Source of the DNA: Desulfobacterales bacterium
Lineage (GTDB): Bacteria; Desulfobacterota; Desulfobacteria; Desulfobacterales; UBA5616
Reading direction: 5' to 3'
Assembly: GCA_046483495.1 (NCBI GenBank)
Contig: JAWODC010000044.1
Span: forward strand, 128,001 to 192,000
Length of the DNA: 64,000 nt
A program made the position numbers and the translations under genes. The number at the start of each line of letters is the position of its first letter. Position 1 is the first letter of the stretch. A model generated the notes under the pieces. That model saw nothing but the letters and a program-made list of their open reading frames with translations. It made no database searches and had not been told where the DNA came from. This document shows positions 1 to 18,872 of this stretch, piece by piece.

Positions 1-525
1 GGTTTGCATACCATCCCTGTGAATATCCGTAAAATTGATGGCTGCAACCCCGCTGTCTTCGAACCGCGCGGCCAGGTCTGCCGCTTTTATCCGGGTGTTT
101 TTTGTCCAACCCTCTGTCGACACCATGCCGTTTCTGGCATCGATGCCGACGATGATTTTGCCGGGATATCTTTTGCACAGGTCCGACACCCACCGGGTAT
201 TTTCAACGGCTTTGGTTCCGATAACGATTCGTTTTACGCCCATATCGATATACCGGGAAACCGTGTCATCATTCCTGATTCCGCCACCCACCTGCACATC
301 TCCGTCAACCGCACTCAGTATCCGTTGAATGGACATCAGGTTCTTCGGCTGCTTTTCGATCGCGCCGTCCAGGTCGACGACATGAATGGTGTCGGCTCCC
401 TGTTCCTGCCATTTCCGAGCGGTTTCTACCGGATCATCGGAATAGACGGTTTCTTTGTCCATGCGCCCCTGAAGAAGCCGTACACAGTTTCCGTTTTTGA
501 TATCGATTGCCGGGATTATTTTCAT
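1..525 (-). CDS. hisA: ProFAR isomerase HisA (partial, 3' end runs off the window)
   Basis: Not in the ORF track. Manual minus-strand translation from ATG 525 gives MKIIPAIDIKNGNCVRLLQGRMDKETVYSDDPVETARKWQEQGADTIHVVDLDGA, the HisA N-terminal signature. ATGA overlap with the upstream gene's stop. Confidence 0.95.
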   Translation of the reverse strand, partial: MKIIPAIDIKNGNCVRLLQGRMDKETVYSDDPVETARKWQEQGADTIHVVDLDGAIEKQPKNLMSIQRILSAVDGDVQVGGGIRNDDTVSRYIDMGVKRIVIGTKAVENTRWVSDLCKRYPGKIIVGIDARNGMVSTEGWTKNTRIKAADLAARFEDSGVAAINFTDIHRDGMQT

Positions 526-1220
526 TTTAACGGAAAATCCTTCATGATTTTATCGAGACCCTCTTGGGCCAGGTCCTCGGCAGTCACCCAGCGTCCTTTT
601 CGTTGAATGAACGCTTTCAATGTCAATAGATCTTCACTAAGCGCCTGTTGCGTTTCATTGAATACGCCGGACCATATGACGTATCCTTCCGGTAAATCCA
701 AGAGATGAAATCCAAATGCTGCCGATGCCGGAGTTTCAACGGCATATCGCTTTCCGACACGCTGTTTGAATCGGTACACGTAGCCCACCAGCGCATAATC
801 AGCAGTCATTTTGCGGCCTGCGGCGATCACCTGATCTTTCTTGACGATCCCACCGCCGGCCGATTGGAAGGCCGGAAGTGCCTCTTTCACCTGTTTCGGG
901 GTGATAAGATCGAGGCGGGGGTGTCCGGTCAAGCGGGCCACTACGGCATCTGCAAGAAAATCCTCTGCGTTTTCCATCACTTCCCCGGTCATAAAAAAAT
1001 CGCCGCTGATCGGATCGGCGACGCTTCGATGAATCCCGTACAACTGTACCATGTTTCCGACCGGGAAAATTGCGACCACCGCTCTTTCTCCGGATGCATG
1101 ATGATCCGCCGGCAGGGTTTTCGGCCGGTCGGCAACGCACCCATACAAGAGAGTGAGGGTCATTAGAAAAAGGAGGACAGCGAATCGCGTTCTGCGAACG
1201 CAAGGCGATGCATCCGTCAT
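522..1220 (-). CDS. Putative lipoprotein of unknown function
   Basis: Hydrophobic signal peptide ending in lipobox LLYG-C; alpha/beta domain; translationally coupled between hisB and hisA. Confidence 0.7.
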   Translation of the reverse strand: MTDASPCVRRTRFAVLLFLMTLTLLYGCVADRPKTLPADHHASGERAVVAIFPVGNMVQLYGIHRSVADPISGDFFMTGEVMENAEDFLADAVVARLTGHPRLDLITPKQVKEALPAFQSAGGGIVKKDQVIAAGRKMTADYALVGYVYRFKQRVGKRYAVETPASAAFGFHLLDLPEGYVIWSGVFNETQQALSEDLLTLKAFIQRKGRWVTAEDLAQEGLDKIMKDFPLK

Positions 1221-1221
1221 T

Positions 1222-1836
1222 TTATAAAATCCCTTTCGATGATTGTACGCCCGGCAGCCGGGGCTCTCCGGTGCAGGCTTCGTCGAGTGCCCGGCCGAGG
1301 GATTTAAAAACGGATTCGATCATGTGATGTTCATTTTCTCCATAGAAGACATGGATATGCACATTCATAGCGCTGTGAATACTGAGGGCGCGAAAAAATT
1401 CTTTCGCCAGTGCCAGGCCGAATTTTCCTGGGGCCTCCGGAACACCGGGTACACGGTAAACGAGGTAGGGGCGTTTTGCTAAATCCAGCGCCACCGCAGA
1501 CATGGCATCGTCCATGGGTGTTACCGCATAGCCGTACCGTTTTATTTGCCGCCGATCGCCGAGTGCCGAATCAACAGCATCGCCTAAAACGATGCCGACA
1601 TCTTCAACGGTATGGTGGAAATCGACGTCCAGATCGCCGATCGCATTCACTGACAGATCGAAAAAGCCATGGACGGCAAACAGCGTCAACATGTGGTCGA
1701 AAAAGGCTATGCCCGTAGATATCTGTGCGATGCCCGACCCATCCAGACAGAGGCTGATCTCAACTTCTGTTTCGCTCGTTTTTCTTTTTTCTTTGGCTGT
1801 TCGCTGCATCCACACCCCCGGTGCGGTCATATTCAT
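1222..1836 (-). CDS. hisB: Imidazoleglycerol-phosphate dehydratase
   Basis: Motifs STGIAFFDHML, GDLDVDFHHTVEDVGI, PMDDA, GENEHHMIES, SSKGIL. The true start may be the later Met (MQRTA). Confidence 0.97.
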   Translation of the reverse strand: MNMTAPGVWMQRTAKEKRKTSETEVEISLCLDGSGIAQISTGIAFFDHMLTLFAVHGFFDLSVNAIGDLDVDFHHTVEDVGIVLGDAVDSALGDRRQIKRYGYAVTPMDDAMSAVALDLAKRPYLVYRVPGVPEAPGKFGLALAKEFFRALSIHSAMNVHIHVFYGENEHHMIESVFKSLGRALDEACTGEPRLPGVQSSKGIL

Positions 1837-1922
1837 TTCAAAAGTCTTTTACCGCAATTGAAATACTACAACCTTCTACGCGAAGTCAAGGAGTCTTTTT
1901 GGGATCACCATCTGGGAAAGAG

Positions 1923-1951
1923 AAAAAACCCCTTGTATATCAAGGGGTTTT
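1923..1951 (-). terminator. Rho-independent terminator after tRNA-Ala
   Basis: Minus strand reads AAAACCCCTTG-ATATA-CAAGGGGTTTTTT directly after the tRNA CCA end. Confidence 0.8.
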
Positions 1952-1957
1952 GAGAGC

Positions 1958-2033
1958 TGGTGGAGATGAGGGGGCTCGAACCCCTGACCTCGGCATTGCG
2001 AACGCCGCGCTCTCCCAGCTGAGCTACATCCCC
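1958..2033 (-). tRNA. tRNA-Ala (anticodon CGC)
   Basis: GGGGATGTAGCTCAGCTGGGAGAGCGCGGCGTTCGCAATGCCGAGGTCAGGGGTTCGAGCCCCCTCATCTCCACCA: 76-nt cloverleaf, G3:U70 alanine determinant, encoded CCA. Confidence 0.97.
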
Positions 2034-2210
2034 ATTTTAAAATTGCACTTTTATCAGAATGTGAAGATCAGGTCAATCAAAAAAGCCCTTGCGTTGCACC
2101 GTCGATCATTATAAGTTTATATGATTTACCGAAGGCGCATTTCGCGAGCGGAAAAACGCAACTTCGAACGAAATATGTCGGCTTTGAATGAAATGACAAG
2201 GACATGATTT

Positions 2211-3944
2211 TTGATGAAAAGAACCTTGGTACTGAAAGACGCATATAAGACGTTTACGTTGGACCAGGATAAAACCGCCTCCCCCGGGGAAACGGTTCAG
2301 CAGGTTAAACAAAGACTCAACGCCATCGATTTGGACGTACTCAGTGATACGGTCCGAATCGACAACGGCAGATTGAATATTCCTGTCTATTTCAGCATCT
2401 GCGGAAAAGACGCTGCCGTCGTATGCAGCACTCATAAACAAATGGGAAAGGGCGCCACACCTGAACAGGCGGAAGCCAGCGCGACCATGGAATTGGTGGA
2501 ACGGTTCAGTTTTTACAGCTTTATGAAGGATCGAAGCAATTTCATCATCGGAAAAGCCAAGAACCTTTCAGCCGAAACGCTCGCGTTCGATAGGATTGCA
2601 GCATCGGTGCACGACCGGTCCGATGATGTGGAAAAGGCGCAACAAATCTTTGAAAATCTCGAACTCAAGTGGACCTGGGGACACCATCTCACACGGGATA
2701 TACCGATTCTGGTGCCGTTTGACTGGTTCTATACGATTAATGAATTCAACGGCGCATCCACCGGAAACTGTGTTGAAGAAGCCTTATGCCAGGGAATCTG
2801 CGAAGTCGTGGAACGTCATGTCTCTTCTCTGATCAGCCGAAATCGAATAACACCCGCGGCAATCGACCCGAAAAGCCCTATCGACCCGATGGTCGTCGAA
2901 ATGATCGAAAAGTATACGAAAAATCGAATCCAAATCTACATTTCAGATTTCACACTGGATATGGGGATACCCACCGTCGGTGTTCTTGCCTATGATCCGT
3001 TGACGTTTCCGGATACCAGTGAAATCGTGTGGACGGCCGGAACCGCCACACACCCTGAAAAGGCGTTGAGCCGTGCGCTTTCCGAAACGGCTCAGCTGGG
3101 CGGCGATTTCAACAGCGGGGCCAACTACGTGGCAAGCGGTCTGCCGAAACTTTCATCGATCGCCGAGGCCGGTCACGTCATCAATGCCCCCGGCAATCGT
3201 CATATTCGTGACCTGCCGAACATCTCGCACGATAACGTGCGCATCGAAGTCGAGCGGTGCGTTGCGGCGCTTTCCGAAAAAGCCATGGAAGTTGTCGTGG
3301 TGGATACATCCCATCCCCGGCTCGGTCTGCCGGCCTTCTATACCCTTGTGCCCGGGGCGCATTTCAGAGAGCGGGCTGAAAATACAAGTGCAGCCTTGTT
3401 CTCGACCAAGATTATAGCGGAACAGTATCCCCCCGAGCAGGCCCTTTTCGAATTGATTCACATTGACGAGCACATCTTGCCGAACAAATACTTTATCAAA
3501 TTCTATATCGGAAAATGCCACTTGGCCTTGGAGCGTCCGGAGCAGGCACTAACGTATTTCGAGCAGGCCCTGAATCTCGAGCCCGTCCGGCAGGATGCGG
3601 CATCCGTTTATTCCTATATGGGCGTGTGCCTGAAAGAAATGGAGCGATTCGAAGAAGCGCTGGCCGTTCTTGAAAAGGGGCGCCGAATCGATGATGAAAG
3701 AACGGATATCCATAACCTCATGGGATTTTGCCGGTTCAAACTGAAAGACCATCATCAGGCGATAGCAAGCTTCAAAAAAGTGATCGCACTCAACCCGGGC
3801 TCGGCCATCGATTATGCCAATATCGGCGTGAATTACCGTGAACTGGGAGATGTGGATTCGGCTGTTCATTTTTTCCGGACGGCCCTCGCTCTCGATCCCA
3901 CCCTCACTTTTGCCAGAGACGCGCTTGAAAAATTAACCGCCTGA
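2211..3944 (+). CDS. YcaO-like ATP-dependent amide-activating enzyme with C-terminal TPR repeats
   Basis: YcaO motifs MGKG, ASATMELVER, NGASTGN, GICEVVERH, RALSETAQ; last ~140 aa are TPR-type helical repeats. Likely start is ATG 2214. Confidence 0.88.
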   Translation: MMKRTLVLKDAYKTFTLDQDKTASPGETVQQVKQRLNAIDLDVLSDTVRIDNGRLNIPVYFSICGKDAAVVCSTHKQMGKGATPEQAEASATMELVERFSFYSFMKDRSNFIIGKAKNLSAETLAFDRIAASVHDRSDDVEKAQQIFENLELKWTWGHHLTRDIPILVPFDWFYTINEFNGASTGNCVEEALCQGICEVVERHVSSLISRNRITPAAIDPKSPIDPMVVEMIEKYTKNRIQIYISDFTLDMGIPTVGVLAYDPLTFPDTSEIVWTAGTATHPEKALSRALSETAQLGGDFNSGANYVASGLPKLSSIAEAGHVINAPGNRHIRDLPNISHDNVRIEVERCVAALSEKAMEVVVVDTSHPRLGLPAFYTLVPGAHFRERAENTSAALFSTKIIAEQYPPEQALFELIHIDEHILPNKYFIKFYIGKCHLALERPEQALTYFEQALNLEPVRQDAASVYSYMGVCLKEMERFEEALAVLEKGRRIDDERTDIHNLMGFCRFKLKDHHQAIASFKKVIALNPGSAIDYANIGVNYRELGDVDSAVHFFRTALALDPTLTFARDALEKLTA

Positions 3945-17054: not shown

Positions 17055-17783
17055 TTAACGTTTGTTTTTACGGGCTGCTGTCGTTTTCTTTTCGGCATAG
17101 TGGATTACAGCTTTTAGAAGCGATGCGCTGTGTCCGATTTGACGGTAAGCCTCGGCTTTGGATATCAGCCTGTTTTCATTTTCGAGTTCGGCTCCCTTTC
17201 TAATCGACAGATTTGCAATCCGGGCGATGTGCGCCGCCACATCCTTTTCCGAATCGAGTGAAATCGGATAAATCGCTATCTTGTCGAGATGTTTCAAGAC
17301 ATCGGCATTGATGCGGCCGTCGGTGAGGGAATGGCATCTTTTGTTGTACGCGTTATATTCGGTGTTGTGAAGGGGCTGCGACAGGTCTCCGATGTAATGC
17401 GCGCAAAACGCCATGTGATTTTCCGGGTATTCACCACGGGAGGCCTCCTCGATATACGTTCTCAAAGAACCGAGGATGGCACCGTAAAGATGCCCTGAAA
17501 ACGTGAGTTTATCATATTTTTCAGCCTGCTCGAACACCATTTCGGTCGTAATGACACGGTCATGGGGATTGGCCGAATAATGGTTTAACGACTCGCGTCT
17601 TCCGGCTTTTACTTTCACCAGGTCCGCCGCGGCGGCATTGTACCACTTTTTGTAGCCGGCCGCCTTGGCAATGGCGATATGCGTTTCATCATACCACGCT
17701 CCGGCAAGGTCCGGCAGCCACAGCAGAGGGAGAAACAGCAACAAAACGGTTGCACGAGACGCTGAAGCAACGATTTTTTTCAT
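17055..17783 (-). CDS. Secreted S1/P1 nuclease / Zn-dependent phospholipase C family protein
   Basis: Signal peptide then W..ETH, HYIGDLSQPLH, HSLTD zinc-ligand pattern. Confidence 0.8.
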   Translation of the reverse strand: MKKIVASASRATVLLLFLPLLWLPDLAGAWYDETHIAIAKAAGYKKWYNAAAADLVKVKAGRRESLNHYSANPHDRVITTEMVFEQAEKYDKLTFSGHLYGAILGSLRTYIEEASRGEYPENHMAFCAHYIGDLSQPLHNTEYNAYNKRCHSLTDGRINADVLKHLDKIAIYPISLDSEKDVAAHIARIANLSIRKGAELENENRLISKAEAYRQIGHSASLLKAVIHYAEKKTTAARKNKR

Positions 17784-17795
17784 TCGGTAATGCGG

Positions 17796-18506
17796 TTATC
17801 CTTCCATTTCGGGCAGCCAAAAGGGACCGGTTTTCCCGATCTCCTGGAGCCTCGGGATAAAGCCCATCATGTATTCGGATAAATGTGAGAAGTAATCCGG
17901 ATCCAGCCTTCGTTTAAAAAAGTCCAACGAAAAAAGGGCAATGAGATCGGTAAGCGGGACGATACCGTCACGGGTGGACGGATCGAATTGGGCCCAATTG
18001 TTTAAATGTTCTTCCGACCGGAAGAAATGCATGGTGCTTCAGGCATACGGCATCTTCGCCATCCACTCCGGAAACGGCACCGATACATGCCCGATGATCT
18101 CCGCCGGTTGGGCGTCCTGCAGAACACCATCTTTCATTTCCACGTGAATGGGTTCACCGCAATCCAGGCAGGGAGAATCGATTTCGATCGTTTTTCCGGG
18201 GTACAGCCAGCTGACCGCCAGCGATTCGAACGCTCATTGTGCGAACCATTTCCGCTCCCCATCGATGGTGACGCTATACGGCGTCGGAAGGTTGTTGAAC
18301 GGCGCAAACGATACGATGATATCGGTTTCCGGGTAAAGCCATCCCGGAATGCCGCTGTTGAATAATTCGTGAAGGGTTTTGCGGCCTTCTTCAACGGAAA
18401 CCCCCAATTCCCGGGCAATTTCCGTATAGTGCGGTGCAACGCCCGTTTCCATCATTTTTTTTATGATGAAATGGAAGGTCCTGTTCAGGGTGGCGACATC
18501 ACTCAT
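17796..18506 (-). CDS. MerB-like alkylmercury/organometallic lyase with two selenocysteines (236 aa)
   Basis: ORFs 18234..18527 and 17796..18032 are in the same frame. Reading through TGA 18234-36 and TGA 18039-41 gives ...KWFAQ-U-AFESL...SPCLDCGEPI...MPYA-U-STMHFFRSEEH..., matching MerB motifs. N-terminal HTH-like domain; RBS AAGGAGG before ATG 18506. Confidence 0.88.
18009..18026 (-). promoter_or_regulatory. SECIS-like hairpin for the second UGA
   Basis: UUCUUCC-GGUC-GGAAGAA, a perfect 7-bp stem beginning after a 12-nt spacer from UGA 18039-41. Confidence 0.8.
18210..18222 (-). promoter_or_regulatory. SECIS-like hairpin for the first UGA
   Basis: GCUG-GCGGU-CAGC beginning after an 11-nt spacer from UGA 18234-36; shares a CGGUC core with the second hairpin. 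Confidence 0.6.
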
Positions 18507-18723
18507 GGCGGCACCTCCTTGGGTCAAATTATGGGATTGAAGTGACGTTCATTTCCGTCACGATGACGGGGCGGCATCGGCTTTTTCAGTTGTCGGTGTT
18601 CGAAGAACATGAATCCCGGTGTGATCGCAGCTGCCACAGGTTCTGGCTGCTAATTTCCTTAACACGTCGAATACAATTTCTCAATCACATTGTGCCGAAA
18701 ATGAAAAAAACAGCCGAATTGAC

Positions 18724-18872
18724 TGTCTCTATCCGGGAATGAGAAAATTCGCTCCAATTCAAGCCGGCCGGGAAATCTTAACGCAGGAATACGTTGCTTT
18801 TTTTTTGAGGCTTAAAATTTCCGGACAACAAGGAAACGGATTGAACCAGCCATTTTGGAAGGAATCTTACTA
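18724..18872 (+). mobile_element. Degenerate full-length copy of the MITE at 42897-43039
   Basis: Colinear shared blocks AATGAGAAAATTCG, TTCAAG, GCA.GAATAC.TTG, TTTTGAGG.TTAAAATTT, GAA.CAGCCATTT; termini decayed. Confidence 0.75.

Follow-up and report, generated by a model that had tools for sequence, protein, structure and literature searches.

The window analysed here is a stretch of 64,000 nucleotides from a Desulfobacterales genome, and on its reverse strand lies a single frame of 236 codons which runs from ATG to TAA and holds exactly two in-frame TGAs, at codons 91 and 156 (Table 1). An earlier note on this DNA had described one frame with two TGAs and a CxxC motif between them, a description that we confirm, the motif being CLDC at residues 113–116. 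Reading the gene with table 11 yields an ORF of 97 aa and another of 78 aa. Its GC content of 0.52 and GC3 of 0.62 are in line with those of the neighbouring housekeeping genes, and it was the sole MerB-fold gene detected in the genome with seven queries. The most frequent 8-mer upstream of its relatives is AAAGGAGG, present in 26 of 77 upstream regions, in which we found no shared operator besides the ribosome-binding site. A promoter and terminator scan at the gene stayed at chance level and an Rfam search gave no match above gathering score. Metatranscriptome contigs from two studies are identical to the window, letter by letter, over the first TGA, and contigs cover pieces of the gene in 4/4 runs, which were chosen via this stretch and may include DNA carry-over; the second TGA was spanned by no contig among the matches listed. 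Upstream of the gene, at 18725–18863, lies a non-coding dispersed repeat of approximately 140 bp with many copies in the genome that are 72–86% identical; pieces related to it reach high depth in metatranscriptome contigs and have no Rfam match.

Table 1 Features of the di-TGA gene and of related loci (window positions unless a locus is named).
Feature	Position	Strand	Evidence or remark
MerB-fold protein gene, 236 aa via two UGA codons	17796..18506	(-)	PF03243 89 bits, cut-off 27; fold model
Ribosome-binding site AAGGAGG	18514..18520	(-)	7 bases ahead of ATG
N-terminal winged-helix domain as in MerB, residues ~3–67	18306..18500	(-)	predicted structure, structure matches
UGA codon 91, predicted Sec, MerB Cys96 position	18234..18236	(-)	WFAQ-TGA-AFE; TGA in 112/112 loci
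Glu94 at MerB Asp99 (proton donor) position	18225..18227	(-)	Glu in 110/112 loci, Asp in 2
Predicted SECIS hairpin 1, 6-bp stem, GGUCA loop from 17 nt past UGA	18206..18222	(-)	frozen synonymous sites
C113-x-x-C116 (CLDC) between both TGAs; C113 = MerB Cys117 (structural)	18159..18170	(-)	alignment; C113 invariant
UGA codon 156, predicted Sec, MerB Cys159 position	18039..18041	(-)	PYA-TGA-STMHFF; TGA in 112/112 loci
Predicted SECIS hairpin 2, UUCUUCC-GGUC-GGAAGAA, loop 19 nt past UGA	18009..18026	(-)	frozen synonymous sites
C-terminal extension, ~residues 200–236, R..DY..G.FW	17799..17909	(-)	outside stretch aligned to solved MerB
First further di-TGA clade	L127:3400-4100, L128:2780-3500
Second further di-TGA clade	L130:2932-3678, L131:100-830, L132:3100-3850, L134:2500-3226
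PrdB/GrdB-like UGA gene	L087:2639-3562, L074:3955-4839 (also L086, L096, L099, L102)

The read-through protein scores 89 bits against the Pfam MerB profile PF03243 (gathering cut-off 27), which places it in the MerB superfamily, and it does not reach the canonical MerB models NF033555 (44.6 vs 200 bits) and NF009710 (49.6 vs 193). In HMMER alignments to PDB chains, codon 91 falls on Cys96 and codon 156 on Cys159, C113 corresponds to Cys117 and Glu94 to Asp99 (a column that holds Ser in MerB2), which bears out the earlier claims that TGAs occupy both MerB catalytic-Cys positions and that Glu stands in the place of Asp99. The canonical Cys96/Asp99/Cys117/Cys159 signature is therefore replaced by the conservative equivalents UGA, Glu, Cys and UGA. 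An AlphaFold model built from a 27-row alignment (pLDDT 93.5) matched MerB/MerB2 in Foldseek with an E value of 7e-11, and in a fold comparison with 48,161 chains only MerB and MerB2 matched (Z 17.3 and 15.4, the following chain reaching 4.6), the superposition on 5C17 giving Z 17.3 and an rmsd of 3.3 over 191 residues. Identity to solved MerB is 19–23%.

With MerB (R831b; PDB 3F0O, 3F2G, 1S6L) and MerB2 (5C17) the protein thus shares the fold, over approximately 190 residues at Z 15–17, and with MerB also the N-terminal winged helix, the ligand positions 96 and 159, Cys117 and an acid at position 99. It differs from MerB in that both ligands are UGA (Sec), Asp99 is replaced by Glu, Cys160 is missing, residues 113–116 form a CxxC and a conserved C-terminal extension of ~35 aa follows; its gene also lies outside a mer operon, and MerA is nearly always absent in genomes that carry it. 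The alignment to solved MerB stops at residues 202–206 in the structure comparison, and within the extension R200, Y212, F229 and W230 are conserved in 83 dereplicated genes, in which the putative substrate-pocket aromatics W56, F70, W87 and W148 are strongly conserved too. The MerB signature variants described in PMC8261052 likewise depart from the four-residue signature, and some genomes have MerB without MerA; in the accessible part of that paper they include neither a 99Glu nor a Sec, and the word 'selenocysteine' has 0 occurrences. Because C116 is lost in 14/84 short homologs, a redox relay through the CxxC is disfavoured, and C113/C116 are probably structural; a Zn site formed by C113, C116 and the invariant H167 would be a guess from the treble-clef ancestry given in the available text of PMC10114901.

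In order to see how the two TGAs behave in relatives at the DNA level, we read 112 loci (2, the best 30 of the order search, window gene included, and the best 80 of 559 matches), a set which is biased to close relatives and holds duplicates, and which dereplication at 90% reduces to 83 genes. TGA is found at both ligand columns in 112/112 loci, and four Trp columns read TGG, never TGA. Among the 83 genes the internal TGAs are kept in 83/83 at each site, whereas the true stops vary (TAA in 39, TAG in 28, TGA in 14, with 2 lost at contig ends). Conservation at codon positions 1/2/3 is 0.75/0.82/0.40 ahead of the first TGA, 0.68/0.81/0.39 between the TGAs and 0.59/0.72/0.35 past the second; this coding-like pattern is purifying selection on either side of each TGA. 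That the frame is neither chance nor sequencing error is confirmed, and the apparently broken gene is one intact gene of 236 codons.

Each TGA is followed by a predicted SECIS hairpin over which synonymous sites are frozen. Four- and six-fold degenerate codons are conserved at 0.80–0.97 over hairpin 1 and at 1.00 over hairpin 2 in the 83 genes, compared with a mean of 0.43 and a maximum of 0.60 for 40 comparable codons elsewhere in the gene. In hairpin 1 the synonymous sites of S95, L96, A97 and V98 are fixed at 0.97, 0.89, 0.80 and 0.89, and the stem pairs are retained in 81–83 of the 83 genes; in hairpin 2 the codons of R163 (CGG, 82/82), S164 (TCG, 82/82) and F162 (TTC, 82/83) hardly vary. 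Covariation is modest because most pairs are invariant, the outer pair of hairpin 2 being T-A in 34 genes, C-G in 28, T-G in 12 and unpaired in 9. Single-sequence folding z-scores, from -0.2 to -1.3, are not significant, and the SECIS call rests on conservation. Genome-wide, such a hairpin follows 78 of 146,252 TGA triplets, 8 of them also in open frames, and 2 of those 8 are the two sites of the window gene; two more presumably belong to a formate dehydrogenase and a GrdB/PrdB-type protein, which they resemble by motif. The hairpin of selD carries a different loop. The earlier note had asked for the Sec machinery, all of which we found: in the genome (96.7% complete) selA, selB and selD each pass their cut-offs, a tRNA-SeC(tca), the selC product, is present, and genes end with TGA in the usual way. 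The presence of selA does not discriminate genomes that carry the family (287/301 genomes of the order, 28/30 carriers), and the two carriers without a selA match are 75% and 94% complete. By these comparative signals, both UGAs are very probably read as selenocysteine.

A protein database search returned 303 relatives, and the figures that follow are from the 120 listed together with the query. Among these are 37 long entries, in which W stands at site 1 in 35 cases and at site 2 in 34, most likely through read-through of TGA as Trp by gene callers. The earlier note had held that Trp in homologs would speak against its reading; the 35/37 protein entries do show W, and the DNA of relatives has TGA, never TGG, at these columns, for which reason we rejected Trp at both sites. 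The other 84 entries are short, ~155 aa; 83 of them have Cys at site 1, and none has a residue at column 156, where we infer a TGA. Single clusters at 90% hold both 91-aa and 156-aa members, so site 1 seems to alternate between Cys and UGA. In the pairs P0114 and P0155, and P0043 and P0124, near-identical proteins either end ahead of site 1 or have Cys there, a hint that this alternation may occur between close strains. Natural Cys/Cys relatives with Glu present were also found (P0029 and P0169–P0171), and 35 of 150 representatives terminate just ahead of site 1. One short member carries the label of a proteobacterium and another that of Candidatus Sulfotelmatobacter, so the family is not limited to one phylum. 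No relative was found on viral contigs, and plasmids gave distant MerB-like matches alone (~25% identity among the 10 matches listed); that no longer fused form was scored is weak evidence. NCBIfam 20.0 has no model for the di-UGA clade.

Near full-length members are present in 30 of the 301 sampled genomes of the order (~10%), all with 2 TGAs, and in 36 of 400 further genomes of the phylum, where 41 matches comprise 39 with 2 TGAs, 1 with a third TGA as stop and 1 decayed copy. The decayed copy, L138 (G615:C14:4059-4754), has a TAA near its start, Gln for Glu94 and Val at the second Sec site. The nearest named relatives are Desulfobacteraceae MAGs. In the window, the neighbours are a nuclease-like gene, a DUF169 gene, psd, a D-cysteine desulfhydrase-like gene and a C69 peptidase; the nuclease-like, psd and desulfhydrase-like genes are not seen again in any of the other fetched loci, and DUF169 genes near relatives are distant paralogs in 3 loci. 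The S1/P1 nuclease-like gene (17055–17783, reverse strand; 23.7 bits, below cut-off) begins 12 bp past the stop and has a signal-peptide-like start. A conserved operon was rejected, as no neighbour family occurs in more than 6 of the 83 dereplicated loci. The earlier note had seen no mer partner nearby, and neighbourhood profile searches agree; there is no mer gene among the 42 most recurrent ORF clusters annotated (525 ORFs). MerA reaches a best score of 395.8 in the window genome (cut-off 454.45); of the 29 other carriers, each with 37 candidates scored, one has a MerA above that value. The gene hgcA is above cut-off in 22/30 carriers vs 114/271 other genomes (OR 3.8, p 0.002), which falls to OR 2.4 and p 0.36 on stratification by family (33 carriers, including three partial); hgcA is absent from the window genome at the profile cut-off, and we rejected it as an obligate partner on both grounds.

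Two other gene groups recur beside a minority of members. A PrdB/GrdB-like gene with an in-frame TGA (U-P-V-C-H-Q) is found upstream, in the same orientation, in 6/112 loci, and it occurs in 5/30 carriers vs 4/271 others (9/301 in total; OR 13, p 7e-4, kinship uncorrected), a link which may track only selenoprotein-rich genomes. In a group of 9 loci (among them L048, L049, L059, L060, L065, L074 and L086), a run of CCG Fe-S, GlcD-like FAD oxidase, CCG and C-GCAxxG-C-C genes starts 29–98 bp past the MerB-like gene. Separately, a conserved but unrelated frame in two loci (L044:3014 and L045:3425; LLPKTD-TGA-SYR) has an in-frame TGA followed by a hairpin and may encode a further selenoprotein.

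The known selenoprotein of this fold is SaoL (Haft and Gwadz, 10.1101/2022.07.06.499078), which, as far as the accessible text goes, shares with the window protein the MerB fold, a Sec at the Cys159 position, occurrence in anaerobes and truncation in databases. The single Sec of SaoL lies in a CU motif, and SaoL retains Cys99 and Asp102 and belongs to a nine-gene locus, whereas the window protein has two UGAs, the second in an A-U-S context, a UGA at the first ligand and Glu. Against the SaoL model NF040728 the window protein scores 48.6 (cut-off 140), while the positive controls L133, L140 and L141 score 163, 147 and 170. The nine-gene SAO neighbourhood is absent beside the window gene, and a genome-wide search, run without a positive control, did not find SaoC. 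SaoL membership was rejected on the score, the separate clade, the different motif and the lack of SAO neighbours. Judged by its sequence, the protein is of the MerB kind, but neither MerB proper nor SaoL.

Twenty weaker or odd matches, examined individually, widened this picture. Two further MerB-fold clades have TGA at both ligand columns with Asp retained (L127 and L128; L130–L132 and L134) and showed no common neighbourhood, Cys/TGA forms occur in L139 and L143, and L133, L140 and L141 are SaoL. The Cys/Asp/TGA MerB-like gene at L143:2946-3570 lies amid heavy-metal-type genes (MerE, DUF302 and HMA-like ORFs). L142 (G668:C9:68500-75000; ~262-3410, reverse strand) carries a MerB-like gene that keeps Cys and Asp and whose Cys159 column is TGA. 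Immediately downstream of it come merT, a ferredoxin-like gene and a merA that scores 539 bits, above its cut-off, so this mercury-resistance cluster seems to include a MerB with Sec; the available part of Haft and Gwadz (10.1101/2022.07.06.499078) reports no selenoprotein in mercury resistance. In a quick tree with long branches the window clade (36 rows, SH-aLRT 99) is separate from the other groups (99, 100 and 96). This tree does not resolve the deeper branching, and the double UGA may have arisen once or more than once.

As to function, the best reading, to which we give an even chance, is a di-selenolate protein that acts on its own as a metal-carbon lyase or as a trap for organometals. 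In MerB, according to the text available of PMC10114901, R-Hg+ is bound by Cys96 and Cys159, the carbon receives its proton from Asp99, and Cys117 has a structural role. In the proposed mechanism SelB would read each hairpin, so that Sec is inserted twice; U91 and U156 would bind R-M+ like the two cysteines of MerB, more tightly and already ionised, with R-Hg+ as the best candidate and organo-Sn, Pb or As as possible ones; Glu94 would deliver the proton and R-H would be released. As MerA is absent, the freed ion would be held, or passed to cellular thiols or sulfide, and not reduced to Hg(0). In favour of a lyase or trap, the catalytic columns align, the fold matches MerB/MerB2 only, Cys/Cys relatives exist and all 112 loci keep a carboxylate in the Asp99 column. 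The TGA-bearing MerB beside merT and merA in L142 indicates that a Sec at the Cys159 site would be compatible with mercury handling, and selone mimics are reported to cleave Hg-C bonds faster than their sulfur analogues (abstracted from part of PMC11639659). On the other side stand the low identity, the MerB scores below cut-off, the lack of mer context and the absence of MerA and hgcA here. Very tight Se-Hg binding could also block turnover, which counts against a lyase. Asp99 is called essential for MerB, and Glu is absent from the variants described, in the accessible portions of PMC10114901 and PMC8261052; since Glu also occurs in Cys-bearing relatives, Glu94 is not a compensation for Sec.

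A more specific and clearly more tentative version of the lyase is that the family constitutes a widespread hidden di-Sec organomercurial lyase, which would turn methylmercury into Hg(II) and methane independently of mer in sulfate reducers and syntrophs, and would be one of at least three di-UGA MerB clades that merB surveys miss because gene callers cut them. Sulfate reducers lacking mer are reported to turn methylmercury into Hg(II) and CH4 by a route that is unknown, which favours the lyase or trap in general; the same source, as far as available, doubts enzymatic demethylation by these organisms, as sulfide does so abiotically, which counts against it (PMC10114901).

An alternative that we regard as doubtful is a metabolic selenoenzyme or redox protein built on the MerB scaffold and unrelated to toxic metals, in which the Se/Se pair would serve as a nucleophile or as a diselenide redox pair in anaerobic metabolism, on organic sulfur, selenium or another substrate. 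The enrichment of the PrdB/GrdB-like UGA gene in carriers, the nine Fe-S/FAD-oxidase runs headed by the gene and the lack of mer context agree with it, as does the observation that Cys/Sec swaps are typical at redox sites (PMC13188914, in the part available). However, 25/30 carriers, including the window genome, lack a PrdB-like gene at the threshold used, no neighbour exceeds 6/83 dereplicated loci, the dispensability of C116 (14/84) is contrary to a CxxC relay, and the layout U-x-x-acid ... U is that of a metal-binding site. A further alternative, which we consider unlikely, is a non-catalytic binder or chaperone of soft metals (Hg2+, Cu+, Ag+ or Cd2+) with two selenolates, akin to the Cu-binding D99S MerB and to NosL, a structural relative: a change at position 99 makes MerB bind Cu (PMC10114901 and PMC8261052, from the text accessible), NosL is a weak structural match to the model (Z 3.8) and a partner reductase is absent, but an acid occupies the Asp99 column in all loci, the pocket aromatics are strongly conserved and no metal transporter or regulator recurs alongside the gene. 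Finally, that translation stops at the TGAs, which would make this a pseudogene or a split gene, or that Trp or Cys is inserted there, as database entries ending at residue 90 or 155 or showing W and the unremarkable hairpin z-scores might suggest, is very improbable given the invariant TGAs beside TGG at Trp columns, the downstream purifying selection, the synonymous sites frozen exactly over the hairpins, and a genome with ordinary TGA stops and full Sec machinery.

The literature searched, which lay outside subscription journals, yielded no description of a di-UGA MerB clade. Papers containing the whole words MerB and SECIS list SaoL or one MerB-like entry, as far as their accessible parts go, and Table 1 of the selenoprotein catalogue PMC13188914, with 119 families, has one MerB-like family with one Sec (SaoL). 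The gene studied here represents a large separate clade with UGA at both metal ligands which is invisible to annotation, and two separately encoded selenolates as metal ligands in one active site would be unusual chemistry. The family is widespread in anaerobic sediment bacteria, and it probably cuts or traps organometal compounds. The origin of the MerB fold is called unclear in the available part of PMC10114901, and if the protein does not cleave Hg-C bonds, the gene would point to an older job of that fold. If it does, it would provide a concrete candidate gene for anaerobic methylmercury degradation, and demethylators would be undercounted by merB-based surveys.
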